Shown: positions 581 to 46,095 of the stretch, piece by piece | Layout of the letters: each line of letters starts with the position of its first letter | How positions within the stretch are numbered: position 1 is the first letter of the stretch | Source of the DNA: an uncultured Alphaproteobacteria bacterium | GTDB taxonomy: Bacteria; Pseudomonadota; Alphaproteobacteria; UBA11222 | Direction of reading: 5' to 3' | Length of the DNA: 64,000 nucleotides | NCBI GenBank assembly: GCA_947085465.1 | Contig: CAMTWQ010000014.1 | Span: forward strand, 3,904 to 67,903 | Notes under the pieces: model-generated | Databases searched by the model: none | What the model saw: only the letters and a program-made list of their open reading frames with translations | What the model was told of the DNA's origin: nothing | Made by a program: the position numbers and the translations under genes

Positions 581-606
581 CGCGCGATGATTTTAGGTTT
601 GCCCAT
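577..606. repeat. partial copy of hairpin-repeat family H (left arm only)
   Basis: ATGATTTTAGGTTTGCCCAT is identical to 21955-21974 in the full H element. It starts at the CTAG that contains the stop codon of the preceding ORF. Confidence 0.55.
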
Positions 607-1587: not shown

Positions 1588-1722
1588 AGCAATCTGCATT
1601 AAGTTCGAGTCATGAGGCTCGAACTTAATAAAGAAAATTGCTCTAGATTTTAATGTGTTAGAGCAGCTTTCCGCGATTAAGTGGAGTCGCGAAGTGACTC
1701 CACTTAATCGCGGGCTGCTCTA
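1584..1722. repeat. composite hairpin repeat: unit B (1584-1646) + linker ATTTTAATGTGT + unit A (1659-1722)
   Basis: Two imperfect palindromes, each bounded by CTAGAGC...GCTCTA(G). The whole block recurs reverse-complemented at 11702-11840. Confidence 0.9.
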
Positions 1723-3622: not shown

Positions 3623-4144
3623 ATGACGACTGCAACAAAATCAAAAAAAACTGCATCCAAAACAACGGCGAAATGCACGGCAGGTGTTAAGCGGTCGGCG
3701 CCTGTACCCGTGTTGACAAGCTCTACAGGGCATTTGTTGCGCCGCGCTGAACAGCGGGCAATGAATATCTATACCCAAGAAGTTGGGGCGGGGGGATTAA
3801 CGCCGCGTCAATATGTGCTGCTCACCGCCGTTTTAACCTATGAAGGGCAAAATCAGTCTGATTTAGTGAGCGCCACCGGCATCGACCGCAGCACGCTGGC
3901 CGAAATGATTGCACGCATGCTCGAAGCAGGAATGTTAAGCCGCGAGAGAACCAAGGATGACGCGCGCGCCAATGCGGTGAAATTGACCGCCAGCGGACGG
4001 CGGGCGTTAGCAGCGGCGGCGGCAAAAATACGCAAGGCCGAGACCCGCACCATCGCGCCGCTACCCGTGAGCAAGCGGGCGGCCTTTCTCGACGCCTTGC
4101 GCATTCTCAGCGGCGATTCAGCAAAGCGGAAAAACTCCCGCTAG
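3623..4144 (+). CDS. MarR family transcriptional regulator
   Basis: GLTPRQYVLLTAV...QSDLVSATGIDRSTLAEMIARMLEAGMLSRERTKDDARANAVKLT is a winged-HTH MarR pattern. Confidence 0.85.
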   Translation: MTTATKSKKTASKTTAKCTAGVKRSAPVPVLTSSTGHLLRRAEQRAMNIYTQEVGAGGLTPRQYVLLTAVLTYEGQNQSDLVSATGIDRSTLAEMIARMLEAGMLSRERTKDDARANAVKLTASGRRALAAAAAKIRKAETRTIAPLPVSKRAAFLDALRILSGDSAKRKNSR

Positions 4145-4259
4145 ACCATTTCTTGATCGGATTGATTCAATCCGATCAGGATAAAAATGGTATAACACAT
4201 TCAATGAGAGCCTTTCTTGTCCGGTCAGGTTGCTTCAACCTGACCGGGAAAGGCTCTAA
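4141..4259. repeat. composite hairpin repeat: unit C (4142-4194) + linker + unit D (4206-4258)
   Basis: C is TAGACCATTTC.TGATCGGATTGA/TCAATCCGATCAGG..ATGGT.TA. D is GAGCCTTTCTT.CCGGTCAGGTTG/CAACCTGACCGG.AAAGGCTC. The same C-D block occurs at 12324-12445 (inverted) and at 41073-41186. Confidence 0.9.
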
Positions 4260-4642
4260 ACAATAATGTTCAGATGGCTGCCCGGCGGCGTAATACGCAG
4301 CCGGGCGTTCGGGTTAGGCGCTTCGCGGTGAGCGGCTGAATAGAGCGGGCGGGCGGGCGGGTTGGGTTTTGTTGCAATTTCACCAATAGTGGGGTTTACA
4401 ACGGAATTTGGCCTTTTCGCATCTTCAAGACTGCCCGTCTTGGAAGCTTGACGCGGCAAGCGCCCGTCATTGCGCGCCCCAATATCTTTTGGGGCAGAGG
4501 AAGCACGTTCACGCGCTGTTGTGCTAACGGGATTGGCGTCAGGGGAAAACGCGCGCCGGGCTTCCTCCTGGGAATATTGACTGCGCAATTGCGCCGCATA
4601 GGCCTGCGCCCCAATTAAACTGGATGGATGTACCGCCGCCAT
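4256..4642 (-). CDS. hypothetical protein, low-complexity (Ala/Pro/Arg/Ser-rich)
   Basis: Only the ORF track supports this. I recognise no motif. Its stop codon is the terminal TAG of repeat unit D. Confidence 0.35.
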   Translation of the reverse strand: MAAVHPSSLIGAQAYAAQLRSQYSQEEARRAFSPDANPVSTTARERASSAPKDIGARNDGRLPRQASKTGSLEDAKRPNSVVNPTIGEIATKPNPPARPLYSAAHREAPNPNARLRITPPGSHLNIIV

Positions 4643-4721
4643 CTCGCCACTTTATCCCGTAACAACATTGAATAGCGGTGAATATAGGCAGCGGGGCTTT
4701 CTCAATCGTTAAAGTCTTTGG

Positions 4722-5180
4722 TTAATCGAGCTGGCGCAACTGCATCTGTTCGGCGGCGGAAAGCGGTGCGGGATCAGGTGCTTGTCTCCTTTGCCGGTTG
4801 CTTGACCATATGGCTGCGCCGCCAATTGCCAGCAGTACGCCCGGCCCAAGCCATAATAGCCAGGTCGCGGCCCTGAACGGCGGGCGCATCAGCACCCAAT
4901 CCCCATAGCGCGCCACCACATAGGCGCGCACCTGGTCGTCATCGTCACCGTCCGCCACGCGATCACGGACAATTTGCCGCAGATCGCGGGCAAGGGACGC
5001 ATCGGAAATTTCGATCGACTGATTCTGACACACCAGGCAGCGCAAACCGTTCATAATCAAACGGGCGCGGGCCTCCTGGCTGGCGTCCGGCAGGGCGTTG
5101 GCGTCGACTGCAATAGCGCCAGCCGGATTGCTGGAAGCCAGCAAGAACACAGTTGCGAGAACAGATAATAGCCGTTTCAT
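4722..5180 (-). CDS. ccmH: cytochrome c-type biogenesis protein CcmH
   Basis: Signal peptide MKRLLSVLATVFLLASS and the LRCLVCQNQSI motif. Start at the ATG at 5180, overlapping the ccmG stop as ATGA. Confidence 0.85.
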   Translation of the reverse strand: MKRLLSVLATVFLLASSNPAGAIAVDANALPDASQEARARLIMNGLRCLVCQNQSIEISDASLARDLRQIVRDRVADGDDDDQVRAYVVARYGDWVLMRPPFRAATWLLWLGPGVLLAIGGAAIWSSNRQRRQAPDPAPLSAAEQMQLRQLD

Positions 5181-5707
5181 TGTTTCGCGCGCTGAATGGC
5201 GGGAAGAATTTTTCCGGTTAAATCCTCCGGATACATCGGCCCTACATGTTTGAGTACAATCCGCCCCGCGCCATCGACAATGAAGGTTTCCGGTATCCCA
5301 TAGACGCCCCATTCGATCGACACCCGCCCCATCTGGTCCACCCCCACGGCGTGATAAGGATCGCCAAGCCCGGCCAAGAATTTTAGCGCATTCGCCTCTG
5401 TGTCCTTATGGTTGATGCCGATCATGCGAACACCGCCCATTTGCGCCAATTGCATCAATTGCGGATGCTCGGCCCGGCATGGGCCGCACCAGGACGCCCA
5501 CACATTGACCAGGGTAACCTGGCCTTTGGCCAGATCGGCGGCAATAAGGCCCGGCTCCTTACCCGGCAATGGCGGTAAATCCGCTGTTGGCGCCTGTTGT
5601 CCGATCAGCGCAGAGGGAATAAGGCGCGGGTTAAGCCCAAGGCCAACGAACAGAGCGATGCACAGTACAATGAACAGGCCGAGCGGTATCAGGCTGCGCC
5701 AGGTCAT
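5177..5707 (-). CDS. ccmG: thiol:disulfide oxidoreductase CcmG/DsbE
   Basis: WASWCGPC thioredoxin motif, N-terminal TM anchor, and position within the ccm operon. Confidence 0.9.
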   Translation of the reverse strand: MTWRSLIPLGLFIVLCIALFVGLGLNPRLIPSALIGQQAPTADLPPLPGKEPGLIAADLAKGQVTLVNVWASWCGPCRAEHPQLMQLAQMGGVRMIGINHKDTEANALKFLAGLGDPYHAVGVDQMGRVSIEWGVYGIPETFIVDGAGRIVLKHVGPMYPEDLTGKILPAIQRAKQ

Positions 5708-10816: not shown

Positions 10817-11704
10817 ATGGGGTCAACGATGAGCACAGCTAATATTCCAATAGTCACCGCGTTTTTTGATACGGACAGCTTCACATTCAGTTATGTGGCG
10901 GCGGATCCGGCAAGCAAGAGCTGCGCGCTGATCGATACGGTGCTGGATTTCAATCAGGCGTCGGGCAGGGTATCGCATGCCTGCGCAGACAAGATCATCG
11001 CCCATGTGCGCGGCCTGGGGCTGCGCGTGGACTGGATATTGGAAACCCATGTGCATGCGGATCATCTTTCGGCGGCCGCTTATTTGCAGCAGCAACTGGG
11101 CGGCAGGCTGGCTATTGGCGCCAGGGTCAGCATCGTTCAGGAAGTCTTTGGCAAACTGTTCAATTGCGGGCCGGAGTTTGCCCGTGACGGACGGCAGTTC
11201 GATCAACTGTTCACGGATGAAGAACTATTCATGGTTGGCGGAATACAGGCGCGTGCTATGTATACGCCAGGACACACGCCTGCCTGCATGAGCTATGTGA
11301 TCGGCGACGCCGTATTTGTTGGCGACACCTTGTTCATGCCCGACTATGGCACGGCGCGTTGCGACTTCCCAGGCGGCGATGCGCGGCAGCTTTATCGCTC
11401 GATTCAAAAACTGTTCGAAATACCCGCGCATAGGCGCCTGTTCCTGTGCCATGATTACAAGGCGCCGGGACGTGATTATTTTCAGTGTGAAACCACCATT
11501 GCGGAACAGCGGGCCAACAATGTGCATCTGCATGACGGGATCGGCGAAGATGAATTTACCGCCATGCGCACAGCCCGCGATAAGACCCTCGACATGCCGC
11601 GCCTGATCCTGCCTTCGGTGCAGGTGAATATGCGCGCCGGCCAAATGCCGCCGCCGGAAAATAACGGCATCGCCTATCTGAAACTTCCGCTCAATTCGTT
11701 TTAG
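10817..11704 (+). CDS. MBL-fold metallo-hydrolase (persulfide-dioxygenase/glyoxalase-II-like)
   Basis: ETHVHADHLSAA metal motif and YTPGHTPACMSYV. An alternative start is the ATG at 10829. Confidence 0.8.
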   Translation: MGSTMSTANIPIVTAFFDTDSFTFSYVAADPASKSCALIDTVLDFNQASGRVSHACADKIIAHVRGLGLRVDWILETHVHADHLSAAAYLQQQLGGRLAIGARVSIVQEVFGKLFNCGPEFARDGRQFDQLFTDEELFMVGGIQARAMYTPGHTPACMSYVIGDAVFVGDTLFMPDYGTARCDFPGGDARQLYRSIQKLFEIPAHRRLFLCHDYKAPGRDYFQCETTIAEQRANNVHLHDGIGEDEFTAMRTARDKTLDMPRLILPSVQVNMRAGQMPPPENNGIAYLKLPLNSF

Positions 11705-11840
11705 AGCAGCCCGCGATTAAGTGGAGTAACGAAGTGCCCCCACTTAACCGCGGAAAGCTGCTCTAACACATTAAAATCTAGAGCAATTTTCTTTATTAAG
11801 TTCGAGCCTCATGGCTCGAACTTAATGCAGATTGCTCTAG
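11702..11840. repeat. composite hairpin repeat A (11702-11765) + linker + B (11778-11840), inverse of 1584-1722
   Basis: Near-exact reverse complement of the B-A block at 1584-1722. The first TAG is the stop codon of the MBL gene. Confidence 0.9.
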
Positions 11841-11884: not shown

Positions 11885-11960
<76 letters not shown>

Positions 11961-12323: not shown

Positions 12324-12445
12324 TAGAGCCTTTCTTACCCGGTCAGGTTGAACCAACCTGACCGGATAAGAAAGGCTCTAAGTGAATGTGTTAGACCATT
12401 TTTATCCTGATCGGATTGATTCAATCCGATCAGGAAATGGTCTAG
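12324..12445. repeat. composite hairpin repeat D (12324-12380) + linker + C (12392-12445)
   Basis: Inverted copy of the C-D block at 4141-4259. Confidence 0.9.
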
Positions 12446-12479: not shown

Positions 12480-13466
12480 TCATATATAAGGGTCACTTGC
12501 CAGCAAGTAATTCTGCACATAATCCGTGACGCCATCTTCAAGTTCCGTTAACGGACGATTATAACCAATCTGGCGCAGCCGCGATATGTCGGCCTGGGTA
12601 AAATACTGGTAATTACTGCGGATTTCTGGAGGCGTATCCACATATTCGATGCGCGGCGTCACATTCATCGCAGCAAACACCGCTTTCGCAAGATCAGAAA
12701 AACTGCGCGCCTTGCCGGTGCCGACATTAAAAATGCCTTTGTAACTTCCTTGCTCAAGCAGCCACACAACCAGGCCGGCGCAATCTTTCACCGAGACGAA
12801 ATCGCGCAACTGTCCGCCATCTGGGTAATCGGGATGATGTGATTTGAAAAGTTTAACCGTTTCGCCCTTGCGAACAGTGTCAACGATCTGGCAGGCGACA
12901 GAACGCATTTCGTCTTTGTGATATTCATTCGGCCCATAAACATTGAAAAATTTTAGGCCTGCCCAGGCCAGAGGCGCCGGACGGCCATCGGCAATCTGGC
13001 GCGCGGCGCGCCGGTCAAATGCATGCTTGCTCCATCCATAGGCGTTAAGCGGGCGCAGTTTCTCCAGCGCAGCGGGCGTGCACTCATCGCTAAACCCGGC
13101 GCTGCCATCGCCATAGGTGGCGGCGCTTGAGGCATAGATATATGGCGTGCCGGATTTTGTGCACCAGTTCCACAAATCGGTGGACAACCGGAAATTGGCC
13201 GCAACGATCTTGTCCACGTCACGCTCGGTGGTGCTTGAGATCGCTCCCATGTGAATAACGCTTTCGATGCGAAGCCGGTTATGTTCGAGATAATCGAATA
13301 GCCCTTCCAGGCGGATGATGTCGTGAATTTCGTGGTGCGCGATATTACGCCATTTGTCTGACACGCCAAACCAGTCGCAGACAACGATTTCGCGCCGGCC
13401 GCTTTTCGCCAGCGCGGCAACGATATTAGAACCGATGAACCCGGCTCCTCCGGTAACGATGATCAT
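12480..13466 (-). CDS. hldD: ADP-L-glycero-D-manno-heptose 6-epimerase
   Basis: MIIVTGGAGFIGSN Rossmann start, about 328 aa, and adjacent to hldE. Confidence 0.88.
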   Translation of the reverse strand: MIIVTGGAGFIGSNIVAALAKSGRREIVVCDWFGVSDKWRNIAHHEIHDIIRLEGLFDYLEHNRLRIESVIHMGAISSTTERDVDKIVAANFRLSTDLWNWCTKSGTPYIYASSAATYGDGSAGFSDECTPAALEKLRPLNAYGWSKHAFDRRAARQIADGRPAPLAWAGLKFFNVYGPNEYHKDEMRSVACQIVDTVRKGETVKLFKSHHPDYPDGGQLRDFVSVKDCAGLVVWLLEQGSYKGIFNVGTGKARSFSDLAKAVFAAMNVTPRIEYVDTPPEIRSNYQYFTQADISRLRQIGYNRPLTELEDGVTDYVQNYLLASDPYI

Positions 13467-18818: not shown

Positions 18819-18883
18819 CTAGAGCATGTTCCGATCAGATTGAATCGCCGACGGCAATTCAATCTGATCGGAACATGCTCTAG
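18819..18883. repeat. hairpin repeat unit G
   Basis: CTAGAGCATGTTCCGATCAGATTGAAT, a loop, then ATTCAATCTGATCGGAACATGCTCTAG: a perfect 27-bp stem. The right-hand TAG is the stop codon of the TadE-like gene. Confidence 0.9.
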
Positions 18884-19443
18884 CCAGGCGTACGTGTAAC
18901 CGATATTGAACGGCGCGGGGCGAGGAAAAACCTGTCATTCAGCATCACCGCACCGGTGATCAGCTCGCCTAAATCCGAGTGATATTCGTATCGGACTTCA
19001 GCAACGATTACGCTTTGATTGGGTCCCACAAGCCCAAGGGGAAGGGTGTATGCCGTACCCGGAGCATATGGCGTTCCGTTGCGCGCATCGCTCCAGGCAA
19101 CCCGCGTCACGCCTCCGGCGTCTGCGGTGACACTGGCGATAACGATTGAAACAAATGCCGGGTTGAATGGTTGCATTATCGCATCTGCCGCAAAAAATAT
19201 ATTCGCCATGTCCCCGTCATTGATCGTGATAGCCTGCGCCACCAGATCCGCCGCCGCACTGGCGATGTTGGCGGTTTTGCGGTCCGCTATGAGAATATTA
19301 GCGATCTCAACCGAGCCAAATAAAAGTGTAAGCATCACCGGCAAAATCAATGCGAATTCGACCGCCGACACCCCGGCAGCGTTGTGTAGAAACTGGCGCA
19401 GAGACGCCCGGATTTTCATTTGATCAAAAATACTGCGCCACAT
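18880..19443 (-). CDS. TadE/TadF-like pilus assembly (pseudopilin) protein
   Basis: AAGVSAVEFALILPVMLTLLFGSVEI is the TadE N-terminal motif. The start is uncertain: ATG 19443, TTG 19461 or ATG 19419. Confidence 0.75.
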   Translation of the reverse strand: MWRSIFDQMKIRASLRQFLHNAAGVSAVEFALILPVMLTLLFGSVEIANILIADRKTANIASAAADLVAQAITINDGDMANIFFAADAIMQPFNPAFVSIVIASVTADAGGVTRVAWSDARNGTPYAPGTAYTLPLGLVGPNQSVIVAEVRYEYHSDLGELITGAVMLNDRFFLAPRRSISVTRTPG

Positions 19444-19457
19444 TCCAGCTATCCCGT

Positions 19458-20045
19458 TCAAGGAGCTGGCGCCGCCAGCGCGCCATACGGTTCATTCCGG
19501 AAAGCCGTCGTCGACATCAACAAACGTGACCCGGTGCTTCCGATATTGCCGAGTATATACTTCAGCCCCGGCGTGTAGACTGGCCAGATGTAGTAAGCCC
19601 GGACCAGCACCACATCGCCGGCGCTTCCCACGTTAAAATCCCCAGGCAGCGGATTGCCATCCTCATCAACCGGGGGTGTTAAATCAAGCCCCGCAAACGA
19701 CGGGTAAGCATCAACATCCACATAAAGATTGGCGCCGCAATTCAATAGCGTGAAGCTTTCCGCGCATAGTGTGTCGCGGAATAAGACCGCATCAGCGGTT
19801 TGCCCAGTGCGAACCAGGCGCGCCGCTTGCTGCATGCCGTTGTCCAGCGCGATCGAGCCAAGATAAATCATTGACACTTCAAGCAGCGAGAACAATGTCA
19901 GAAAAAATGGCGTTGCAACCAGTGCGAACTCAACCGCCACAGTGCCGCGAGTATCCACAGAAAATCGCCGCGCCGCGCGCGCCATGCCCGTTGCCATAAT
20001 AACAAGGCGCAAAACGGCGCGCAGATTTGTGGGCCACCTGGGCAT
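19458..20045 (-). CDS. TadE-like pilus assembly protein
   Basis: RGTVAVEFALVATPFFLTLFSLLEV motif. The ATG at 20045 has GGAGG 8 nt upstream; the track ORF starts at 20060. Confidence 0.75.
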   Translation of the reverse strand: MPRWPTNLRAVLRLVIMATGMARAARRFSVDTRGTVAVEFALVATPFFLTLFSLLEVSMIYLGSIALDNGMQQAARLVRTGQTADAVLFRDTLCAESFTLLNCGANLYVDVDAYPSFAGLDLTPPVDEDGNPLPGDFNVGSAGDVVLVRAYYIWPVYTPGLKYILGNIGSTGSRLLMSTTAFRNEPYGALAAPAP

Positions 20046-21946: not shown

Positions 21947-22118
21947 AGAGCGGTATGATTTTAGGTTTGCCCATACCACTACCCCGGTCTGTCACCCCGG
22001 ATTTATTCCGGGGTCCAGGAGTAACAAGCATAAGCTTTTATTTGCAACCCTGGACCCCGCAACGAGTGCGGGGTGACATTGTGGGTTGGGCGATTCAACC
22101 TAAAATCATCGCCCTCTA
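21947..22118. repeat. complex nested inverted repeat, family H
   Basis: The outer arms share GATGATTTTAGGTT / AACCTAAAATCATC within AGAGCGG...CCCTCT termini. Inside are the inverted pairs GTCACCCCGG/GCGGGGTGAC and GGGGTCCAGG/CCTGGACCCC. The terminal CTA is the stop (TAG) of the minus-strand gene. Confidence 0.85.
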
Positions 22119-22796
22119 ATGGGTAACGGTCGCTTCTTCGCCGGTGACGCCGCCACAGGCGGCAAGCTGAGCCGTTAATATCGCAACCCGCGCCGCGCGC
22201 CGTTTTTTATCCGCATCGGTTTTGCACAGTTCATTCAGGATCGTATCACCCCAGGCAATGTGTTTTTTGGTTTTGCGGATAATGCCTTCCAGCAATTCGA
22301 TGGTTGGCGCGTCGCAAATCTGATCGGTCTCTGAATTGAACTTTTCATAGACTTTTACAAGATGCGGTTTGAGAACATCAAACACGCCAGCCAGTTTTTC
22401 AATGGTCTGGTCTGGCTGTTCGGGTGCGGCAATTTCCTGAATAAAACTGGCAAAGCCCTGATTGCCGGCCTGGGATCCTTTCTGCCCGACCTTGGTGCCG
22501 CAACGCAATTCCGGCAGGCGCTTGCCCAGTTCATCCGCCGCCACCGCACCGTCCCAAATGATCTTGCCAAGCCCGGTTTTGACCGGCAGTTCGGGAACCG
22601 TCGCCACCCAGCCCCCCAAGATCATCATCGTCCATTCTTCGGCATAGCGCCAGTTACGCACCCGCAGCGCTACCGATTCGACATCAAAGTGGCCATGCAG
22701 TTGACGCAGGTCGGCGGGAATATCGAATGCGGAATAGGGTGCAAAGGTCGTGCGCTCATCCCGGCTGTCACCAGGATACATGCGTATTTCAGCCAT
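22116..22796 (-). CDS. hypothetical protein, partner of the ferritin-like protein
   Basis: 226-aa ORF with no motif I can name. It lies 11 nt downstream of the ferritin-like gene, with GGAGAA before its ATG. Confidence 0.6.
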   Translation of the reverse strand: MAEIRMYPGDSRDERTTFAPYSAFDIPADLRQLHGHFDVESVALRVRNWRYAEEWTMMILGGWVATVPELPVKTGLGKIIWDGAVAADELGKRLPELRCGTKVGQKGSQAGNQGFASFIQEIAAPEQPDQTIEKLAGVFDVLKPHLVKVYEKFNSETDQICDAPTIELLEGIIRKTKKHIAWGDTILNELCKTDADKKRRAARVAILTAQLAACGGVTGEEATVTH

Positions 22797-27707: not shown

Positions 27708-27878
27708 ATGCTAAAGCCGCGAACCTGGCTGTTGATTGCCGCGCTGAATGTCCTGCTTGCGGTTGCAGCGGGGGCGTTCGGAGCGCACGGGCTTGAGGGG
27801 CGCGCGCCGCCCGCTGATTTGGCGGTGTTTCGCACCGCCGCCCAGTATCACATGTACCACGCCCTAGAGCGTTTTTAG
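27708..27878 (+). pseudogene. DUF423 (YgdD/TMEM256-like) membrane protein gene, truncated after about 53 codons by the repeat cluster
   Basis: Hand translation gives MLKPRTWLLIAALNVLLAVAAGAFGAHGLEGRAPPADLAVFRTAAQYHMYHAL then ERF-stop. The GAFGAHGL...YHxxHAL pattern is the N-terminal half of DUF423 proteins (about 120 aa). Similarity ends exactly at CTAGAGC of repeat F, and no C-terminal half follows. Confidence 0.7.
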
Positions 27879-28109
27879 GAAAACCCGGACCGGGTTTTCC
27901 GGCCAGAAACGTGGCCAGATATAAAACTAGAGCATTTTCAGCCCATTTCAAAACGCTCTGGCTTTTATTCACCCGCATTTCTTGGCGCCTTCGCGGAGTC
28001 ACGTGACTCCGCGAAGGCTGAAAATGCTCTAGATTTTAATGTGTTAGAGCAGCTTTCCGCGATTAAGTGGGGGCACTTCGTTACTCCACTTAATCGCGGG
28101 CTGCTCTAG
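27864..28109. repeat. mosaic hairpin-repeat cluster: unit F (27864-27930) + unit E with 46-nt arm insert (27927-28032) + linker ATTTTAATGTGT + unit A (28045-28109)
   Basis: The F-E part recurs inverted at 39327-39496. The A part matches 1659-1722, 11702-11765 and 46031-46095. Confidence 0.9.
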
Positions 28110-36557: not shown

Positions 36558-37769
36558 GTGAATGGCCAGAGGCTGTTTGTGCCGTTTGCGTCGCCCGGCG
36601 ATACGCTGCTGCTTCAGCCGTCGGGCGGGCGGGCCGTCATCCTCGAAATTCTGACCCCTGGCCCGGATCGCGCCACGCCGCTTTGCAAGCATTTTGGCGA
36701 ATGCGGCGGCTGTGCGTTGCAGCACGTGTCGGATGATTTTGTGGCGCGCTGGAAACGCCAGCAGATTGTCGATGCGCTTAAACGCCAAGGGTTGAGCACG
36801 GACGTGCGGCCAACCCTAACCTGCCCGCCTGGCACGCGCCGCCGTGCGGCGTTTATGCTGGAGCGGGCGCCGGTTGGCGGCGTGGTTCAGGCGGGATTTC
36901 GCGCCCGGCTCAGCCACCGGCTGATTGCCCTTGAAGAATGTCATGTGCTCGATCCTGCGATCCTGTGCGTTCTGCCTGGGCTTGCCCGGCTGGCCGCGCC
37001 GCTGCTTCACGCCAAGGGGCAAGCGCGCACGGTGGTCAATCTGACACTGACGGGCCTTGATGTCAGCGCGGTGATGGACAGAGCTTCGACCTTGACGTTG
37101 TCACAGCTTACCCATCTGGCGGAAATGGCCGATGCGCTCGATCTGGCGCGGCTGGCGTGGAACGGCGAGATTGTAGTGGCGCGGCGCAACCCGCAGGTGA
37201 ATTTCGCGGGCGTTGCGGTTTTGCCGCCGCCTGGCGCATTCATGCAGGCCAGCCCAGAGGGCGAGGCGGCGCTTGTGTCGTTGGTAATGGAGGCGCTTGG
37301 CAATGAAACCGGCAGGGAAACCGGAAGGGCGCTGGAGCTGTTTGCTGGTTGCGGCACGTTTACGTTTCCGGCTGCGCGTTACTGCGCCGTCGATGCTGTT
37401 GAGGGCGATGCGGCGATGGCGGCGGCCCTGCGCCATGCGGCGGCAAATGCGGCGGGCGTTAAGCCGGTGACGGTTAGCACGCGCGATCTGTTCAAGCGGC
37501 CCTTGATGCCCAATGAACTGGCGTCTTATTCAACGGTTATTTTTGATCCGCCTGAAGCGGGCGCAGAGGTCCAAGCCCTGCAAATTTCCGCAACGCCAGC
37601 GGCTAAATCGAAACTGAAGCGGGTGATCGGCGTTTCATGCGATGCATTAAGCTTTGCCAGAGATGCGCGGATTCTGGCGGACGGGGGATTTGCGCTGCAA
37701 TGGGTAGCGCCGGTTGATCAGTTCCGCTGGTCGGCGCAGATTGAATTGGCCGCGCTGTTTGTGCGCTAG
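36558..37769 (+). CDS. class I SAM-dependent RNA (uracil-5) methyltransferase, TrmA/RlmD family
   Basis: Fe-S cysteine cluster CKHFGECGGCALQH and a C-terminal methyltransferase fold (LFAGCGTFTF, VIFDPP). The conserved N-terminal segment continues upstream to the CTG at 36459 with no canonical start (see findings). Confidence 0.8.
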   Translation: MNGQRLFVPFASPGDTLLLQPSGGRAVILEILTPGPDRATPLCKHFGECGGCALQHVSDDFVARWKRQQIVDALKRQGLSTDVRPTLTCPPGTRRRAAFMLERAPVGGVVQAGFRARLSHRLIALEECHVLDPAILCVLPGLARLAAPLLHAKGQARTVVNLTLTGLDVSAVMDRASTLTLSQLTHLAEMADALDLARLAWNGEIVVARRNPQVNFAGVAVLPPPGAFMQASPEGEAALVSLVMEALGNETGRETGRALELFAGCGTFTFPAARYCAVDAVEGDAAMAAALRHAAANAAGVKPVTVSTRDLFKRPLMPNELASYSTVIFDPPEAGAEVQALQISATPAAKSKLKRVIGVSCDALSFARDARILADGGFALQWVAPVDQFRWSAQIELAALFVR

Positions 37770-37840
37770 GGTCTATTTAATTATTTAGAGCCATTTCTGA
37801 TCTCATTGAACCAGATGGTTCAGCATAGACAAAACAGAAT

Positions 37841-39178
37841 CTAGCCCCTAATCGCCTCCGCAGCGCAAGGGGCGATGCGATCCGGGTTGGAATCAAGATC
37901 CTCACGCAGTGTCAGGCCGGCGAAATAATAATGTACGCCCGCCAAAATGTTGAACAGGAATGCGAACGTCAGTGAAATGCGCAAGGATTCCTCGCCATAT
38001 TCCGGTTTCAGATAATCGCTGAGCACACCGACCAAAAACGGCCCCAATCCCAAGCCAATTAAACTGATGACGAACAGCAATATGGCCGAGGCAATGGCGC
38101 GCATGCGCACCTCGGCCAAACCCTGGATTACGGCAAATGTCGGCCCAAGATAGATATACCCAAAGAATAGCGGCAGCGTGAGCATCATCAGCGTCACATA
38201 TTTATCGTAAGACATAATAGCAACAAGGAAAAATGGCACGCCAGCGGCAAGCGTGATGCCGGGAATCCACACATACCAGCGCCGGTCGCTCTTGGCCCAG
38301 CGGTCCGACCAGAAGCCGCCTATGAAGGTGCCAAGGCCCGCAGAAATACCAATCAGCAAAGACAGCCAGGTGCCGATTTCGCCGCTGCTCATTTGATAGG
38401 AACGGGCAAAAAACGCCGGCAGCCAGCCATTGACGCCATAACTGACAAACGCATGAGCCGCGACGCCAAGCGTCACGTGGCGAAACGAACGGCGCGCCCA
38501 TAGATATCTCACCACCTCCATTAGCGGGGCAGGTTCCTGGTGCCTGCGAACGACATCTGTATTGCCGCGCGGCGGCTCTTTCACCGTCATGCGGACAATG
38601 ATCCCCATCAATATCCCCGGTAACCCAACGACGATGAACGCCGTGCGCCAGTCGAAAAAATGCACAAGCCAACCGCCGGCCATCAAGCCGATCAGCGTTC
38701 CTATGGGAACGCCCATCGAGTAGATGCCCATGGCGCTGGCCCGTGTCTCGGGGGTAAAATAATCAGAAATAAGCGAATGCGAAGACGGGCTGGCGCCAGC
38801 CTCGCCAATGGCGACGCCAACCCTGCCCGCCATCAGTTGCCAGAAATTCCCCGCCAATCCGCATACCGCCGTCATCAGGCTCCATGCGGCCAGGCACCAG
38901 GAGATGATATTTACCCGCGAACTGCGATCCGCCAGCCGCGCAATGGGAATACCCATGGTCGCATAAAAAATCGCAAACGCGACGCCCGATAAAAAGCCAA
39001 GCTGCGTATCGGAAAGACCGAGATCCTTGCGGATCGGCTCCAGCAGGATCGACAGGATTTGCCGGTCGATAAAATTAAAAACATACACGACAACCAATAC
39101 GCCTAATACATAATGCTTATAGCGATTGGTAAAACTTACGCGCTCTTCCAGCCCCGGTGATTTTACAGCTTTACTCAT
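37841..39178 (-). CDS. MFS transporter (Spinster-like)
   Basis: Twelve TM helices and the GIPIARLADRSSR motif. It is a paralog of 39505-40815. Confidence 0.85.
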   Translation of the reverse strand: MSKAVKSPGLEERVSFTNRYKHYVLGVLVVVYVFNFIDRQILSILLEPIRKDLGLSDTQLGFLSGVAFAIFYATMGIPIARLADRSSRVNIISWCLAAWSLMTAVCGLAGNFWQLMAGRVGVAIGEAGASPSSHSLISDYFTPETRASAMGIYSMGVPIGTLIGLMAGGWLVHFFDWRTAFIVVGLPGILMGIIVRMTVKEPPRGNTDVVRRHQEPAPLMEVVRYLWARRSFRHVTLGVAAHAFVSYGVNGWLPAFFARSYQMSSGEIGTWLSLLIGISAGLGTFIGGFWSDRWAKSDRRWYVWIPGITLAAGVPFFLVAIMSYDKYVTLMMLTLPLFFGYIYLGPTFAVIQGLAEVRMRAIASAILLFVISLIGLGLGPFLVGVLSDYLKPEYGEESLRISLTFAFLFNILAGVHYYFAGLTLREDLDSNPDRIAPCAAEAIRG

Positions 39179-39326
39179 ACATGCCCCCGCACTTGCCAGT
39201 CAAATATCACGGACCGGCAATTATTATAATAGTTGTTGGTGACTGTTGCTGATTTTTTCCGGTTTGGCCAGCGTAATTATTTAATACTACGAACTTGCAA
39301 AGCAAGTATTTGTGAGCAGATTTTAT

Positions 39327-39496
39327 CTAGAGCATTTTCAGCCTTCACGGAGTCACGTGACTCCGCGTTGGCGCCAAGAAATGCGGTTGAATAATAGCCA
39401 GAGCGTTTTGAAATCGGCTGAAAATGCTCTAATTTTATATCTGGCCGCGTTTCTGGCCGGAAAACCCGGTCCGGGTTTTCCTATAAACGTTCTAGC
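39327..39496. repeat. mosaic hairpin repeat: unit E with arm insert (39327-39431) + unit F (39428-39496), inverse of 27864-28032
   Basis: Reverse complement of the F-E block in the 27864 cluster with a few substitutions. Confidence 0.9.
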
Positions 39497-39504
39497 GTCG
39501 CGCG

Positions 39505-40815
39505 CTATTTTGCGCGATCCGGATTTGACGCAAAATCGTCACGCAAAGTCTTCGCCCCCAAGAGATAGTGCACCCCCGACCACAGATTGACCAAAAACAC
39601 GCCCATCAGCGCGTAGCGTAATGATTCCACGCCAAATGCCGGTTTCAGAAAATCGCTTAGCATGCCAACCGCCAAAGGCCCAAGCCCGAGGCCGATCAAA
39701 TTCACCATAAAGATATATATGGCTGCCGAGATCGCCCGCATCCGCACCTGCGCCAATCCCTGAATAATCGCCAAGGTTGGCCCGTGATAGAAGGCGCCAA
39801 AAAACGCTGGCACGACATAAATCAGTAGCGCCCAATATTTGCCCTCCGCCTGGAAGGCGAAAAACGAAAATGGCACAGTGATCATCAGCGTGACCGCCGA
39901 AATCCATACATACCAGCGCAGGTCCTTTTTGCCATAATAATCGCCGAGATACCCGCCAATAAGGGTGCCAAGACCACCGACAATTCCCGCCAGCATGGCA
40001 AGCCAGGTGCCGATCTCCCCGCCGCCCATATGATGCGAGCGGGCAAGAAATGACGGCAGCCAGCTAATGACGCCATAGCCGACAAATGCATGCAGGCTTG
40101 CGGCAAATGCGACGTGGCGAAATGAGCGCATCCCCCAGAGATACGCCGCCACCTCACGCAAGCTTACATGCGCGGTGTCATGTTGTGCGATCTCGGAATG
40201 ACCACGCGGCGGCTCAATTATGGTCAGCTTGACAATCACCGCCATCAGAACCCCCGGCAGCCCGACAACAACAAAGGCGGTGCGCCAGCCAAAATATTCT
40301 TCAATCCAGCCGCCCGCCAGAAATCCGATCATCACGCCGATCGGAACGCCAAGCGAATAAATACCCAATGCGGTTGATCGTGTTTCAGGCGCGAAATAAT
40401 CCGCGACCAGCGAATGCGCGGGCGGACTGCAACCGGCCTCGCCAATGCCAACGCCAATCCGCGCCAGCAACAATTGCCAGAAATTCTGCGCCAGTCCGCA
40501 TACCGCAGTCATTACACTCCAGATAGTGATGGATGCGCTGATGATGTTCACGCGCGAGCTGCGATCCGCCAGCCGCGCAATGGGTATCCCGAAAGTCACA
40601 TAAAAAATGGCGAAGGCGACGCCGGAAAGCAGCCCGAGCTGTGTGTCCGAGAGGCCAAGATCCAGTTTAATCGGCTGTAACAGGATCGATAGAATTTGCC
40701 GGTCGATGAAATTGAAAACATAAACAACAACCAGTATGCCCAATACATAGCGCCGGTAATTGTCTGTAAACGACACGCTCGCCTGGGGTGCAGATGGTGC
40801 TGTAATATCGCTCAC
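39505..40815 (-). CDS. MFS transporter (Spinster-like), tandem paralog
   Basis: Collinear similarity with 37841-39178 from the N-terminus onward (YVLGILVVVYVFNFIDRQILSILL...). GTG start with GGAGG 7 nt upstream. Confidence 0.85.
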   Translation of the reverse strand: MSDITAPSAPQASVSFTDNYRRYVLGILVVVYVFNFIDRQILSILLQPIKLDLGLSDTQLGLLSGVAFAIFYVTFGIPIARLADRSSRVNIISASITIWSVMTAVCGLAQNFWQLLLARIGVGIGEAGCSPPAHSLVADYFAPETRSTALGIYSLGVPIGVMIGFLAGGWIEEYFGWRTAFVVVGLPGVLMAVIVKLTIIEPPRGHSEIAQHDTAHVSLREVAAYLWGMRSFRHVAFAASLHAFVGYGVISWLPSFLARSHHMGGGEIGTWLAMLAGIVGGLGTLIGGYLGDYYGKKDLRWYVWISAVTLMITVPFSFFAFQAEGKYWALLIYVVPAFFGAFYHGPTLAIIQGLAQVRMRAISAAIYIFMVNLIGLGLGPLAVGMLSDFLKPAFGVESLRYALMGVFLVNLWSGVHYLLGAKTLRDDFASNPDRAK

Positions 40816-41072: not shown

Positions 41073-41186
41073 TAGACCATTTCCTGATCGGATTGAATCA
41101 ATCCGATCAGGAAATGGTCTAACACATTTATTTTAGAGCCTTTCTTATCCGGTCAGGTTGGTGCAACCTGACCTGGAAAGGCTCTA
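41073..41186. repeat. composite hairpin repeat C (41073-41121, perfect 24+1+24 palindrome) + linker + D (41134-41186)
   Basis: Third copy of the C-D block. The terminal CTA is the TAG stop of the CoA-transferase gene. Confidence 0.9.
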
Positions 41187-42371
41187 CGCTCCCAGGACCA
41201 CATTAGCGGCGCGCAGCGCCGTTAGTTCCGCCTCGCTTAACCCAAGCAGGCCACCGAAGATTTCCTGATTATGCTGGCCATATTCCGAGATCAGCGGGCG
41301 CAGGCGGTTATCCGCATACTTGCTGCGTAACGGCGTGTTGGGCATTTTAATATCCCCTCTGCCGTCATTGGCAATGACCTGTGATCCGCGCACGGCGACC
41401 TGCGGAAGGTTCATCGATTCTTCCATGGTGAGAAAACGGGTAATCGGGCTGCCGCCGGCGCTGATAATTTTCTCGGCCTCCTCGGCGGTGTAATCCTTCG
41501 CCCAATCCTCAATCGCCGCCATCAGCCCTTCCCATGCCTCGAAATGGGTTTTCGTGTTAAGTGGAAATCTTTCCTTCCATTCCGGTTTGCCGATTGCATT
41601 CAGTAAATCGGTGTAATTTTTCGCGGTCACCGGCGCGATCATGAAAAATCCCTCTTTCGCCTTGATCGGGATGTTTACCGGCGTGCCGCTACGCATGGGA
41701 AATTGCGCTTCCTGATATTCAAATGCCAGCACACTGTGCATGACATCCAGCATGGAAATGTCGATACGCTCGCCTTCACCAGTGCGCTCACGCCGGAACA
41801 GCGCTGCCGTCATCGCCGCCATGGCGTGGGTCGCGCTCATATAATCCGCCGTCGCATCATTGGCGCGCAGGGGTTTTTTTAGCGCCGGTTCAATCGCCAT
41901 TTTGGCGAGTTCCCAGCCGCTCGCCGCATGGATGATGGGGGCATAGGCGGATAATTCAGCGGCCGGCCCTTCTTGGCCGAAGCCGCACACCGAGGCGTAA
42001 ATGATGTCTGGCTTGCGCGCCTTCATGGCGTCGTAATCAAGGCCGTATTTTTTCATCACGCCGGGGCGGTTATTTTCAAAAACCACGTCGCATTTATCCA
42101 GCAGTCGGAACACCAGATCGACGCCCTCGGGCTTGGTCATATCAAGTGAGATGCTCTTCTTGCCCGCATTCAATTGCGCATAGGCCGCGCCCTTGCCTTT
42201 GCGGCGCGGCACGGTTGTGCGCACTAAATCCCCACCGGGCGGCTCAAGCTTGATAATCTCGGCACCCAGGTCCGCCATCAGGCGCGTGGCGTAAGGCCCG
42301 GCAATGTATGATGTGAAATCAAGCACCCGAACACCGGCAAGCGCGCCGTCCTTAGCTGATGGTTTTGTCAT
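41184..42371 (-). CDS. CaiB/BaiF family (class III) CoA-transferase, paralog 1
   Basis: GVRVLDFTSYIAGPYATRLMADLGAEIIKLEPPGGD is the typical family-III N-terminus. Confidence 0.88.
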   Translation of the reverse strand: MTKPSAKDGALAGVRVLDFTSYIAGPYATRLMADLGAEIIKLEPPGGDLVRTTVPRRKGKGAAYAQLNAGKKSISLDMTKPEGVDLVFRLLDKCDVVFENNRPGVMKKYGLDYDAMKARKPDIIYASVCGFGQEGPAAELSAYAPIIHAASGWELAKMAIEPALKKPLRANDATADYMSATHAMAAMTAALFRRERTGEGERIDISMLDVMHSVLAFEYQEAQFPMRSGTPVNIPIKAKEGFFMIAPVTAKNYTDLLNAIGKPEWKERFPLNTKTHFEAWEGLMAAIEDWAKDYTAEEAEKIISAGGSPITRFLTMEESMNLPQVAVRGSQVIANDGRGDIKMPNTPLRSKYADNRLRPLISEYGQHNQEIFGGLLGLSEAELTALRAANVVLGA

Positions 42372-42401
42372 GTTGCTCTCCTTTTCAAATAGGCAAGATT
42401 A

Positions 42402-43595
42402 TTAGGCCGTAAATAGCACTCCCGATTCCGCCAGGCGGCTGGTGTCCGCCGGACTTAGGCCGAGCCAGCTTTGCAGCACTTCCGCATTATGCTCGCCCAG
42501 ATCGGCGACATAGCGGCCAGGCCGCGAATGCGACTGATTTAACCGCAGCGGGCTGGCGGGAATCATGAATGGGCCAGAGCCATCCTCCACCTCCACCGCG
42601 CTTTCGCGGAAATCGGCCTGCGGCCCATGCATCGCCGACCAGACATCAGTGTAGCGCGCGCACGGGCAGCCGCCTTCGCGGATAATATCTTCGGCTTCCT
42701 CGGCGGTGCGCGTCGCCGCCCATTCTTCGACCGCGCTCAGCACTAATGCGAAATTTTTCATCCGCTCAGCGCCGGAAAGCGGAAATTTTTGCAGCCATTC
42801 CGGGTGTCCGCAGGCATTGGCGAGATCGCGGAAATTATTCGCCGACAGTGGCAGGACCAGGATGAAGCCATCCTTGGCGCGAATGGGCCGATAATCCGGG
42901 CGGGCCCTCTCGGCCTTGAATTGCAATTCCTGGATTTCATAGGCCAGCAGGTTTTGCATCGCCTCGGTCATTGAAATGTCGATTTCCTCGCCCTTGCCGG
43001 TGCGTTCGCGCTTGAGCAGCGCTGCGCTGATCGCCCCCATGGCGAATGTGGCGGCAAGATAATCGGCCGTGGCGTTAGAGCCATTAAGCGGGCGGTCAAG
43101 ATTCTTGTTGTACGAGAGGATCGCATGCTCAAAGCCGCTTGAGGCATGCACGATCGGCGCATAGGCCGCCCAGTGGGCCGCCGGCCCCTCCTGGCCGTAG
43201 CCCGAGATGCTGCAATAAATAATATCAGGATTGATTTTGCGCAGATCGGTATAGCCGAGCTTCAGGCGCTTCATCACGCCGGGGCGGAAATTTTGCAGCA
43301 CAACGTCAGTCTTTTCGGCGAGTTTCAGCACGAGATCAAGCGCGCGCTTGTCTTTAAGATCGAGACAGAGGCTTTTCTTGCCGCAATTGATCTGCCCGAA
43401 ATACGTGCTGCGGCCTTTCCGGCGGGGCGTCATGCCGCGCAATAGATCACCGTTCGGCGCCTCGACTTTCACAACTTCGGCGCCCAGATCCGCAAGTAGC
43501 CGCGCCCCAAAGGGGCCGGCGACGGCGCCGCTGAAGTCAAGTACGCGGATGCCGCTCAACGCGCCAGGCGCGGTCATTTTCACAACTTTACTCAT
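42402..43595 (-). CDS. CaiB/BaiF family (class III) CoA-transferase, paralog 2
   Basis: GIRVLDFSGAVAGPFGARLLADLGAEVVKVEAPNGD, collinear with paralogs 1 and 3. Confidence 0.88.
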   Translation of the reverse strand: MSKVVKMTAPGALSGIRVLDFSGAVAGPFGARLLADLGAEVVKVEAPNGDLLRGMTPRRKGRSTYFGQINCGKKSLCLDLKDKRALDLVLKLAEKTDVVLQNFRPGVMKRLKLGYTDLRKINPDIIYCSISGYGQEGPAAHWAAYAPIVHASSGFEHAILSYNKNLDRPLNGSNATADYLAATFAMGAISAALLKRERTGKGEEIDISMTEAMQNLLAYEIQELQFKAERARPDYRPIRAKDGFILVLPLSANNFRDLANACGHPEWLQKFPLSGAERMKNFALVLSAVEEWAATRTAEEAEDIIREGGCPCARYTDVWSAMHGPQADFRESAVEVEDGSGPFMIPASPLRLNQSHSRPGRYVADLGEHNAEVLQSWLGLSPADTSRLAESGVLFTA

Positions 43596-43612
43596 CGAAA
43601 TTTATTCCCATC

Positions 43613-44815
43613 TTACGCCACCGTTTTTTCTTTTTGCACAACGCCGGATTCCACAAGCGCCGCAAAATCCCGAGGCGTTACGCCAAGAAGGTTCTCCAAT
43701 ATCTGCGCATTATGCTCGCCCAGGAACGGCACATGCTCCCGGATGCGCGATTCCGAATCGCACATTCGCAGCGGCGTATTCGCAACCGTGAAGGGGCCAT
43801 TGCCGTCTTCAACCTCCAGTGAGGATATGCGGAACTGTGCCTGGGGTTCCGCCAGGGCTTCCTCCACGCGGCGCAATCGCCCAACCGGGCAGCCGCCCGC
43901 GCCAATGATCTGTTCAGCCTGGGCGGCGGTAAGCTCGGATGCCCACGCCTCAACTTCGTTCAGAAGATTTTCCCAGTTCTTCAAGCGCTCCGGCACTTGA
44001 AGCGGGTATTTTGTCTGCCATTCCGGATGTCCGCAGGATTTACACAGGTCGGCAAAGTTGCTCGGCGATAGCGGATTGACGACGAAAAACCCCTCTTTCG
44101 CTTTAATCGCGCGATATTTCAATCGCGCTCCCTGCATTTTCATTTTTGCTTCCTGGATCTCGTTGGTCAGCGCGTTGTACATCACCTCGGTCATGGCGAT
44201 GTCTATTTCCTCGCCGCGCCCGGTGCGTTCGCGGCGGAACAGCGCTGCGAGGATCGCGGCGTTGCCATGCACGCCCGTCATATAGTCGGCAAATGGGACA
44301 GAGCCGTTCAACGGCGTTTTGTTGTCCTCCTGCCACGCCATCATGGATAGATCGAGGCCGGAAGTGGCGTGTATGATTGGCGCGAACGCCGCCCAGTCAG
44401 AAGCGGGACCTTCCTGTCCAAAGCCCGACATGTTGCAGTAGATGATTTTCGGGTTGACCGCTTTTAGATCCTTGTAGCCAAGCCCAAATTCACGCATCAC
44501 GCCGGGGCGGAAATTTTGCACTGCGACATCGCTTTTTTCCGCAAGTTTCAACACTAGATCAATTGCGCGCTTGTCTTTTAGATTCAGGCAGATGCTTTTC
44601 TTGCCGGCGTTCAGTTGTCCGAAATAAGTGCTGCGGCCCTTGCGGCGTGGCAAGGTCTGGCGCAGCAGATCACCAACCGGGGGTTCAATTTTGATTACTT
44701 CCGCTCCGAGATCAGCCATCAGCCGCGTGGCGTATGGTCCTGCGATCACCCCGGTAAAGTCGACCACCCGGACGCCCTCTAACGCGCCCGGCGTGGTATG
44801 CGCCTGGATCGACAT
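43613..44815 (-). CDS. CaiB/BaiF family (class III) CoA-transferase, paralog 3
   Basis: GVRVVDFTGVIAGPYATRLMADLGAEVIKIEPPVGD, and closest to paralog 2. Confidence 0.88.
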   Translation of the reverse strand: MSIQAHTTPGALEGVRVVDFTGVIAGPYATRLMADLGAEVIKIEPPVGDLLRQTLPRRKGRSTYFGQLNAGKKSICLNLKDKRAIDLVLKLAEKSDVAVQNFRPGVMREFGLGYKDLKAVNPKIIYCNMSGFGQEGPASDWAAFAPIIHATSGLDLSMMAWQEDNKTPLNGSVPFADYMTGVHGNAAILAALFRRERTGRGEEIDIAMTEVMYNALTNEIQEAKMKMQGARLKYRAIKAKEGFFVVNPLSPSNFADLCKSCGHPEWQTKYPLQVPERLKNWENLLNEVEAWASELTAAQAEQIIGAGGCPVGRLRRVEEALAEPQAQFRISSLEVEDGNGPFTVANTPLRMCDSESRIREHVPFLGEHNAQILENLLGVTPRDFAALVESGVVQKEKTVA

Positions 44816-46030: not shown

Positions 46031-46095
46031 CTAGAGCAGCTTTCCGCGATTAAGTGGGGTCACGAAGTGACGCCACTTAATCGCGGGCTGCTCTA
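46031..46095. repeat. hairpin repeat unit A, solitary copy
   Basis: CTAGAGCAGCTTTCCGCGATTAAGTGG...CCACTTAATCGCGGGCTGCTCTA with its own apical variant GTCAC-GAA-GTGAC. Confidence 0.9.

Follow-up and report, generated by a model that had tools for sequence, protein, structure and literature searches.

Short palindromic repeats with common TA-flanked ends at gene ends of an alphaproteobacterial contig: probable MITE-like elements

The DNA described here is a 64-kb stretch (64,000 nt, hereafter the window) of contig CAMTWQ010000014.1 from an uncultured alphaproteobacterium. It is chromosomal, has a G+C content of 56%, and carries ccmF, dxs, hldE, hldD, ftsY and ispH-type genes. The intergenic DNA of the window contains at least 18 palindromic units of 49–172 nt, which fall into about nine related families, most of them lettered A to H. 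A previous reading of the letters alone (the sequence-only reading) described these repeats as a mosaic superfamily of units joined head to tail; this description is borne out, with conserved linkers between units in addition. Every unit was found where it had been placed, and the C unit at 41073–41121 is indeed a perfect palindrome. All of the 11 clusters counted in that reading are present, while a twelfth, decayed cluster had been overlooked (Table 1). The clusters sum to ~1430 nt, which amounts to 2.2% of the window and to about one-fifth of its non-coding part. The focal cluster consists of units F, E and A in series and begins at the broken end of a DUF423 gene.

The hexamer TAGAGC occurs 39 times in the window (both strands), compared with 14.05 ± 3.40 expected from 100 dinucleotide-preserving shuffles of the window, none of which reached 39, so that the common terminus is commoner here than chance predicts. 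Sites of the TAGAGC/TAGACC type lie mostly between genes, with 35 of 48 in the ~10.5% of the window that falls outside open reading frames (ORFs) as defined by a rough ORF set. A strict scan for hairpins of the form TAGRSC...GSYCTA gave eight matches in the window; none of the 20 shuffles contained any. The same scan of 1.54 Mb of other alphaproteobacterial loci gave one match, and a variant scan gave one other. When folded as single-stranded DNA (ssDNA) the units have z-scores between -4.1 (F) and -12.6 (G), with B at -8.3 and the remainder as listed in Table 1. Bulged units were passed over both by an ungapped palindrome scan and by a self-BLAST scan, and a sliding-window fold scan proved too permissive.

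With both ends of every family written out, all share the motif TA GAGC, N1–3, TT(T)YC, so that the common terminus is ~12 nt long and not 6. The end sequences are TAGAGCAGCTTTCC in unit A, TAGAGCAATTTTC in B, TAGACCATTTCC in C, TAGAGCCTTTC in D, TAGAGCATTTTC in E, TAGAGCGTTTTT in F, TAGAGCATGTTCC in G and TAGAGCCATTTC in the unit at 37784. Units C, D and G and the 37784 unit are also visibly homologous further inward. The stems had been thought to be otherwise unrelated, which these shared ends and this internal homology refute. Most units do run from (C)TAGAGC or TAGACC to the reverse complement, as had been said of all of them, but four deviate. Unit F lacks a GCTCTA right end and terminates ...CCAGATATAAAAC, with its last TA common to E; H starts with CAGAGC and ends with CCTCTA; and the termini of C at 4142 (end GGTATA) and of D at 4206 (start GAGAGC) are mutated. 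The one-sided TTT bulges of A and B are length variants of the end motif, and B exists in forms of 58, 61 and 64 nt that carry the triplet on neither, one or both arms. The 46-nt insert in one arm of E had been taken for a nested F-like unit. It has an F-like end (CCAGAGCGTTTT) but no TA flanks, and is better described as a chimera than as a nested unit.

Among the clusters of the window and their metagenome relatives, TA is found at both ends in 35 of 38. Immediately 5' of the left TA stands C in 23 and T in 6 of 35 cases, and immediately 3' of the right TA stands G in 22 and A in 8 of 36. The flanks pair as C/G (12 cases), C/A (seven), T/G (three) and T/A (none). Since the two flanks vary independently, they appear to be target DNA, a split Y-TA-R, and not an extension of the palindrome, which would give complementary pairs. 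The favoured target is the TA of Y-TA-R, mostly as CTAG.

An empty and a filled site were found in Sphingobium. One arm of unit G, CTAGAGCATGTTCCGATCAGATTGAATCG, matches 29 nt at the left end of a repeat on Sphingobium replicons with 93–97% identity. This repeat is ~100 nt long (TA GAGCATGATCCGATCAGAyTGrATCGrATCATGCTC TA TTyGTC...GCTTCGAAAATGCTC TA) and occurs at three to four loci per replicon with 92–95% identity; its right end, GAGCATTTTCG, resembles unit E. At a locus between a gene annotated 'hemolysin D' and an MFS gene, the element is present in six Sphingobium strains and absent from four. The alignment at this locus included one filled strain (TomTYG73) and three empty ones (TomTYG72, TomTYG64 and TomTYG46). 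The filled strain reads TTTATC-TA-(GAGCATGATCC...GAAAATGCTC)-TA-GGGACGC, whereas TomTYG72 and TomTYG64 read TTTATC-TA-GGGACGC; TomTYG46 is also without the element. The insert thus consists of GAGC...GCTC and one extra TA, which indicates a duplication of the TA target within CTAG. The part that moves is GAGC...GCTC, and the TA on each side of it is the duplicated target. The annotated coding sequence upstream stops at the same TAG in filled and empty strains: the insertion entered the stop codon, which was rebuilt from the TA and the first G of the element. The TA duplication, the CTAG target and the rebuilding of a stop are seen directly in this G-homologous element only.

L123, a second Sphingobium locus that was set against L128, L129 and L130, has diverged too far to give an empty site exact to the base. 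Here positions 540–920 of the sequence from Sphingobium sp. TomMM7A hold a ~350-nt mosaic of four different palindromic elements, including GAGCATCGTGCGCAAAAGTGGGAACCGGTTTTGCGC... and TAGAGCGCGCGATCTGCG...CGCGCTCTAG, between a gene end and a terminator-like hairpin. The mosaic is absent at that locus from TomTYG72 and S. herbicidovorans.

In the window, the terminal TAG of an element is exactly the stop codon of at least seven genes supported by Pfam (at 580, 1587, 4144 and 11704 on the plus strand, and at 18880, 37841 and 41184 on the minus strand). The ORFs at 36558–37769 and 22116–22796 likewise stop on an element TAG, as do nine ORFs of at least 150 aa in the metagenome loci, and 11 of the 12 clusters follow closely on the 3' end of one or more genes. 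The first base of the body is G on either strand; an insertion that splits a TAG or TAA stop would therefore restore a TAG to the gene on whichever side, and the protein would remain unchanged. In a rough ORF list, TAG is the stop of 22 of 65 window ORFs, and at least nine of the 22 coincide with element edges. A TAA stop that received an insertion would become TAG, and TAG usage may be inflated in this way.

It had been stated that no unit lies inside an intact gene. This is true, but many gene stops lie on element edges, and one gene, the DUF423 gene, is cut at the focal cluster. Its homology to relatives ends at 27865, the first base of F+E+A, in a blastn comparison with a relative (L104), and tblastn did not find the remainder of the gene in the window. 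Relatives have an intact DUF423 gene of 120–136 aa, and the ancestral sequence at the break was probably GCC CTN GTG. Downstream of the cut gene lies cobS, where relatives (L104–L109) have a TPR gene. A gene cut at an element edge, together with cobS in place of the TPR gene, shows that an element-bounded deletion or rearrangement took place. In another locus (L092), a membrane-protein ORF of 425 aa (4244–5521, minus strand) runs 46 nt into a B unit before its stop, and the B unit encodes the last ~15 residues of the protein.

Copies of the units are not confined to the window, an alternative that the sequence-only reading had left standing. They or their relatives occur in 21 metagenome contigs, in metagenome-assembled genomes (MAGs), in Skermanella and in Sphingobium. 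The 21 contigs with A cores come from JGI metagenomes, and none overlaps the window. In them 24 units of A and 17 of B were counted, for the most part joined as the composite B-(G/T)ATTTTAATGTGT-A and situated at different loci; with the window and the 21 contigs, whose flanks differ, taken together there are 47 A and B units (28 of these are copies of A). The B-linker-A composite is present at at least 15 unrelated loci, and solitary A units with bare TA ends stand in unique DNA at metagenome loci too. Units A and B are ~95% identical between the window and these contigs, whereas the housekeeping genes of the nearest relatives are ~75% identical in DNA. None of the GTDB representatives is closely related to the window organism, whose Dxs reaches at most ~76% identity with them, and exact and gapped patterns of the A core had no match in the GTDB representative genomes. 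A look-up of the HldE protein of the window returned no record. No A or B core was found in viral contigs, and an all-against-all comparison of the metagenome loci for empty sites returned duplicates only. Related TAGAGC hairpins with other stems are found in a Lake Baikal MAG (L119, with a unit-linker-unit mosaic), in a second MAG (L081) and in Skermanella (L032). In the last of these (Skermanella stibiiresistens, 4400–4495), a 64-nt CTAGAGC...GCTCTAG hairpin is centred in a longer palindrome, CAACCGTAGGTCGG...CCGACCTACGGTTG, and gives the appearance of having entered a REP-like (repetitive extragenic palindromic) hairpin of the GTAG type at its central CTAG.

The relatives of the window organism (L104–L118, 80–91% protein identity) have no units in ~140 kb of DNA. 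A comparison of orthologous gaps, as had been proposed, shows the same gene ends without units; the relatives are not syntenic at the clusters. No element follows the ABC-2 permease gene of the G locus, and at the locus corresponding to 12324–12444 the epimerase gene has a convergent SDF gene as its immediate downstream neighbour. An association of the clusters with breaks in synteny was considered, as all three clusters examined lie at synteny ends, but element-free junctions nearby break too and the link is not significant. The relatives that lack TAGAGC units have another intergenic palindromic repeat of ~105 nt (TCGTCATTGCGAGGAGCGAAGCGACG..GGCAATCCAGAG..., with a variant in L108), located at 8562–8676 in L101, 1008–1119 and 9837–9941 in L104, and 9835–9939 in L108. 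In the relative L113 (14234–16127), a gene for an Eco29kI-type restriction endonuclease stands beside one for a DNA cytosine methylase, downstream of the hldD region.

Table 1. Repeat units, mosaics and adjoining gene features in the window
Feature	Coordinates	Strand	Description	Fold (kcal/mol; z)
Truncated DUF423 gene	27708–27878	+	Pfam DUF423 positions 1–33 of 86; cut after ~53 codons	
Unit F, focal cluster	27865–27929		Imperfect hairpin with left end TA/GAGCGTTTTTAGG; right end degenerate; TA at 27928–27929 common with E	-15.3; z -4.1
Unit E, focal cluster	27928–28031		Palindrome TA GAGCATTTTCAGCC..GGCTGAAAATGCTC TA; 46-nt insert in left arm	-30; z -6.9
Linker GATTTTAATGTGT	28032–28044		Conserved; stands before A units, after either B or E	
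Unit A, focal cluster	28045–28108		64-nt hairpin with one-sided TTT bulge, bounded by TA...TA	-25.1; z -9.7
H-type end fragment	577–606		CTAG CGCGCGATGATTTTAGGTTTGCCCAT; TAG is stop of Wzy_C gene 74–580	
Mosaic B (1585–1645) + linker + A (1659–1722)	1585–1722		Left TAG is stop of MOSC gene 613–1587	
Mosaic C (4142–4194) + linker + D (4206–4258)	4142–4258		Left TAG is stop of MarR gene 3623–4144	
Mosaic A (11702–11765) + linker + B (11779–11839)	11702–11839		Left TAG is stop of metallo-beta-lactamase-fold gene 10817–11704	
Mosaic D (12324–12380) + linker + C (12392–12444)	12324–12444		Downstream of heptose epimerase gene 12480–13466	
Unit G	18820–18882		Solitary 63-nt near-perfect hairpin between convergent genes; right CTA is stop of TadE-like gene 18880–19461	-31; z -12.6
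Unit H	21947–22118		172 nt; ~25-nt terminal inverted repeats GAG(C/G)G..GATGATTTTAGGTT, non-palindromic interior, classic MITE layout; right CTA is stop of ORF 22116–22796	
Decayed cluster	37767–37843		TAG/GGTCTA (C-type without interior), linker TTTAATTATT, decayed unit TA GAGCCATTTCTGATC..GAATC TA; edges are stops of ORF 36558–37769 and MFS gene 37841–39178	
Mosaic E (39328–39431) + F (39429–39494)	39328–39494		Inverted copy of 27865–28031; between two paralogous MFS genes	
Mosaic C (41073–41121, perfect palindrome) + linker + D (41134–41186)	41073–41186		Right CTA is stop of CoA-transferase gene 41184–42371	z -12.2, -7.8
Unit A, solitary	46032–46095		Flanks are unique DNA (tac/TA...TA/tat); no linker	

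Several of the clusters are copies of one another. The mosaic at 11702–11839, which is followed by a tRNA gene at 11888–11960, is the inverse of that at 1585–1722 (94% complementary). The second copy of F (39429–39494) lies within a 171-nt inverted repeat that is also 94% complementary, and the second copy of E (39328–39431) has a structure identical to that of the first. The linker of the focal cluster also separates B and A at 1646–1658, at 11766–11778 (reversed) and at ~15 metagenome loci. The decayed unit at 37784 is related to units in L081, L092 and L119. At 37767–37775, on the stop of the ORF at 36558–37769, the sequence TAG/GGTCTA resembles a C-type unit cut down to its ends, and may be an excision footprint or the result of an internal deletion. 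The 9-nt tip of unit A, CAC-GAA-GTG, can point either way with respect to the TTT bulge (CACGAAGTG or CACTTCGTN), that is, with the loop flipped inside an otherwise fixed hairpin (window copies at 1659, 28045 and 46032; L083–L103). Two of the neighbouring gene groups are tandem paralogues. The two MFS genes that enclose the E+F cluster (37841–40815) share blocks of 70–79% identity at a spacing of 1637 nt, and 41184–44815 holds three CoA-transferase family III genes with a spacing of ~1220 nt.

The repeats are real and mostly explained. [quoted passage not shown] They are little more than two terminal inverted repeats placed back to back. Like MITEs they are small, non-coding and present in multiple copies at unrelated loci, and terminal inverted repeats are found in all families. 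The TA duplication, known from Sphingobium, and the preference for CTAG, known from the cluster flanks, are those of IS630/Tc1-mariner elements; members of the IS630 family target TA, with a preference for CTAG, and leave the dinucleotide duplicated (PMC2170065, citing Tenzen & Ohtsubo 1991). The enzyme would be encoded elsewhere in the genome and would be a DDE transposase, more likely of the IS630/Tc1-mariner than of the IS5/IS427 type; TA/GAGC-N1–3-TTYC would be its probable recognition and cut site. The IS427 group of the IS5 family, for example IS711 of Brucella, duplicates TA at a YTAR target. Insertions into stop codons, being harmless, would pass selection and accumulate at the 3' ends of genes. 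Where the outer ends of neighbouring units are compatible, two units and the linker DNA between them could move as one piece, and the mosaics B-linker-A, C-linker-D and F-E would in this way have been built and dispersed with a constant linker. The two arms of a unit often change together. In unit B both partners have changed in seven pairs, the proportion of paired cells is 96%, and none of 500 shuffles reaches the covariation score; the variants A and A' differ at five arm positions, four of which are changed on both arms. We would ascribe such matching changes to template switching between the arms of palindromes or to separate founding events, and not to selection on an RNA.

Several points weigh against this interpretation. 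No transposase was detected among the ~55 ORFs of the window with Pfam and NCBIfam models, and in none of the loci compared do matching ends stand 300–3000 nt apart. No empty/filled pair was found in the window's own lineage, where the closest relatives have 80–91% protein identity and clusters are not syntenic. The connection between the Sphingobium element and the window consists of 29 nt of homology and the shared end motif. The eight to nine families differ beyond the first ~12 nt, which would normally call for several sequence-specific transposases. Covariation between arms is not required of classical MITEs and would fit an enzyme, or a function, that reads the hairpin. Finally, the TA duplication could be only apparent: an element that itself terminates in ...TA and enters on the 3' side of ...TA would leave the same pattern, a behaviour known in some IS200/IS605 elements.

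The coexistence of about nine stem families, and their mosaics, would be accounted for by a single enzyme that reads the ~12-nt foot (TA/GAGCANNTTC) and the hairpin shape and not a long sequence-specific inverted repeat. The units would then be exchangeable hairpin modules. We put forward this form of the transposon interpretation tentatively and consider it unlikely.

A similarly doubtful explanation is that the units are related to REP or REPIN sequences and move as ssDNA by means of an HUH tyrosine transposase (RAYT/TIRYT) that reads a hairpin and a foot tag, YTAG here and GTAG in classical REPs, the TA duplication being apparent. The sequence-only reading had drawn the analogy with REPs and with the mosaic elements (BIMEs) that they form, and the resemblance is considerable. 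Both sets of repeats comprise many families of intergenic palindromes with a TAG-containing tag of 3–4 nt, both form mosaics with conserved spacers, and both supply TAG stops. Only a short foot is common to the many stem families of the window, the hairpin is kept through compensatory changes (unit B; A and A'), which form the strongest argument for this view, and the tip of unit A is found in both orientations relative to the bulge. Moreover, GTAG REP termini are known to give TAG stops to flanking ORFs, and some REP-like families have no known transposase (PMC3733652). As a mechanism, however, the analogy is poorly supported. REPs are defined as palindromes of 20–40 nt whose tag, GTAG or CGTC, is unpaired and occurs at one end (PMC3733652), while the units here measure 49–105 nt and have a YTAG tag at both ends, where it is base-paired. 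Their stems of 23–30 bp are two to five times the REP length, compared with 5–13 bp in REPs. REPs show no target duplication, but TA stands on both sides of the insert in the Sphingobium empty/filled pair, and the symmetric and independent preferences for Y and R in the flanks are typical of a split palindromic target. In addition, unit H and the Sphingobium element carry two different ends and are not simple hairpins, and a search of the window detected no Y1 transposase domain. The paired two-ended tag, the long stems and the TA duplication in Sphingobium argue for a TA-duplicating transposon of the MITE kind and not for a REP.

Alternatively, the hairpins could be mainly signals of the host, such as factor-independent terminators, stabilisers of mRNA 3' ends or protein-binding sites, that have spread by selection. 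The position of 11 of 12 clusters just downstream of a gene agrees with such a function, as do the great stability of the hairpins and the ~95% identity of A and B set against ~75% for the housekeeping genes of the nearest relatives. We nevertheless regard this origin as very improbable. A terminator scan calls none of the units and gives no excess of terminator-like sites, most units lack a T-run, and they follow genes in both orientations. Some copies truncate an ORF (DUF423) or extend one (4244–5521 in L092), relatives do without units at the same gene ends, and the insertion polymorphism among near-identical Sphingobium strains demonstrates mobility. Signalling could be a secondary use of the units, but not their origin.

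Other candidates can be dismissed briefly. A duplication of 4 bp (CTAG, IS5 group) or 3 bp (TNA, IS1031 group) does not fit solitary copies, whose flanking tetramers differ (e.g. TTAG/CTAG and CTAG/CTAA). GANTC sites for CcrM are present in the loops of A, C, E, G and H but are absent from D, F and most B copies, and this idea was therefore dropped. Integron attC sites would have R''/R' cores of the form RYYYAAC...GTTRRRY, whereas these ends are TAGAGC/GCTCTA and flank housekeeping genes in all orientations. The idea that Rhizobiaceae have similar hairpins gained no support from a synthetic 42-nt query, which matched Sphingomonadaceae only.

No described family was found to fit the units, in agreement with the initial assessment. 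Among the Rfam covariance models the only gathering-level match was to the tRNA, with chance matches to miRNA hairpins below threshold; full-text literature searches with unit cores and ends returned unrelated primer matches only, and a literature search found no paper on MITEs in sphingomonads. In PLSDB plasmids there was no match for H, C+D, B+A or F+E, and matches through unit G were restricted to the Sphingomonadaceae. The closest parallel is with IS630/Tc1-mariner insertion sequences and their MITEs, such as RUP of Streptococcus pneumoniae. These share the insertion at TA, the 2-bp TA duplication, the preference for CTAG, and the short non-coding form with inverted ends, presumably moved in trans. 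In contrast, the units here are far shorter (49–65 nt), almost pure palindromes, and assembled into mosaics. No IS630-type element with the ends GAGCANNTTC was found in the window or the loci compared. The Correia elements of Neisseria and the ERIC/YPAL elements of enterobacteria are small palindromic intergenic repeats of 100–170 nt, flanked by TA and often near or overlapping gene ends, with one or two families per genome; no cognate transposase is known for them. There is no sequence similarity between these and the units of the window, which form about nine short, modular families with a common 12-nt end. The RIME elements of rhizobia are also intergenic mosaics of large palindromes in Alphaproteobacteria. 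The clusters of the window and a generic TAGAGC hairpin query match no Rhizobium, Sinorhizobium or Agrobacterium replicon in PLSDB; the RIME sequence itself was not compared.

TA-duplicating MITEs are well known as a kind, and GTAG REPs already supply TAG stops (PMC3733652), so that the supply of stops by repeat termini is not in itself new. A superfamily with short all-palindrome units, mosaics and stop-neutral ends appears to be undescribed, as judged by Rfam, PLSDB and full-text searches. The end motif is shared by freshwater MAGs, Skermanella and Sphingobium, and the superfamily may therefore be widespread and uncatalogued. Annotators of alphaproteobacterial genomes and MAGs should expect such units at gene ends, next to truncated genes and near contig breaks. 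Sphingobium strains are in culture and differ in their insertions, and this makes them a tractable route to the transposase. For the persistence of selfish elements in a compact genome, insertion at the TA of a stop codon, with a first base G that rebuilds the stop on either strand, would carry no cost to the host. Should a single foot-reading enzyme move all of the families, they would constitute a distinct class of stop-codon-targeting, protein-neutral transposons that are tolerated or used at the gene ends of Alphaproteobacteria.

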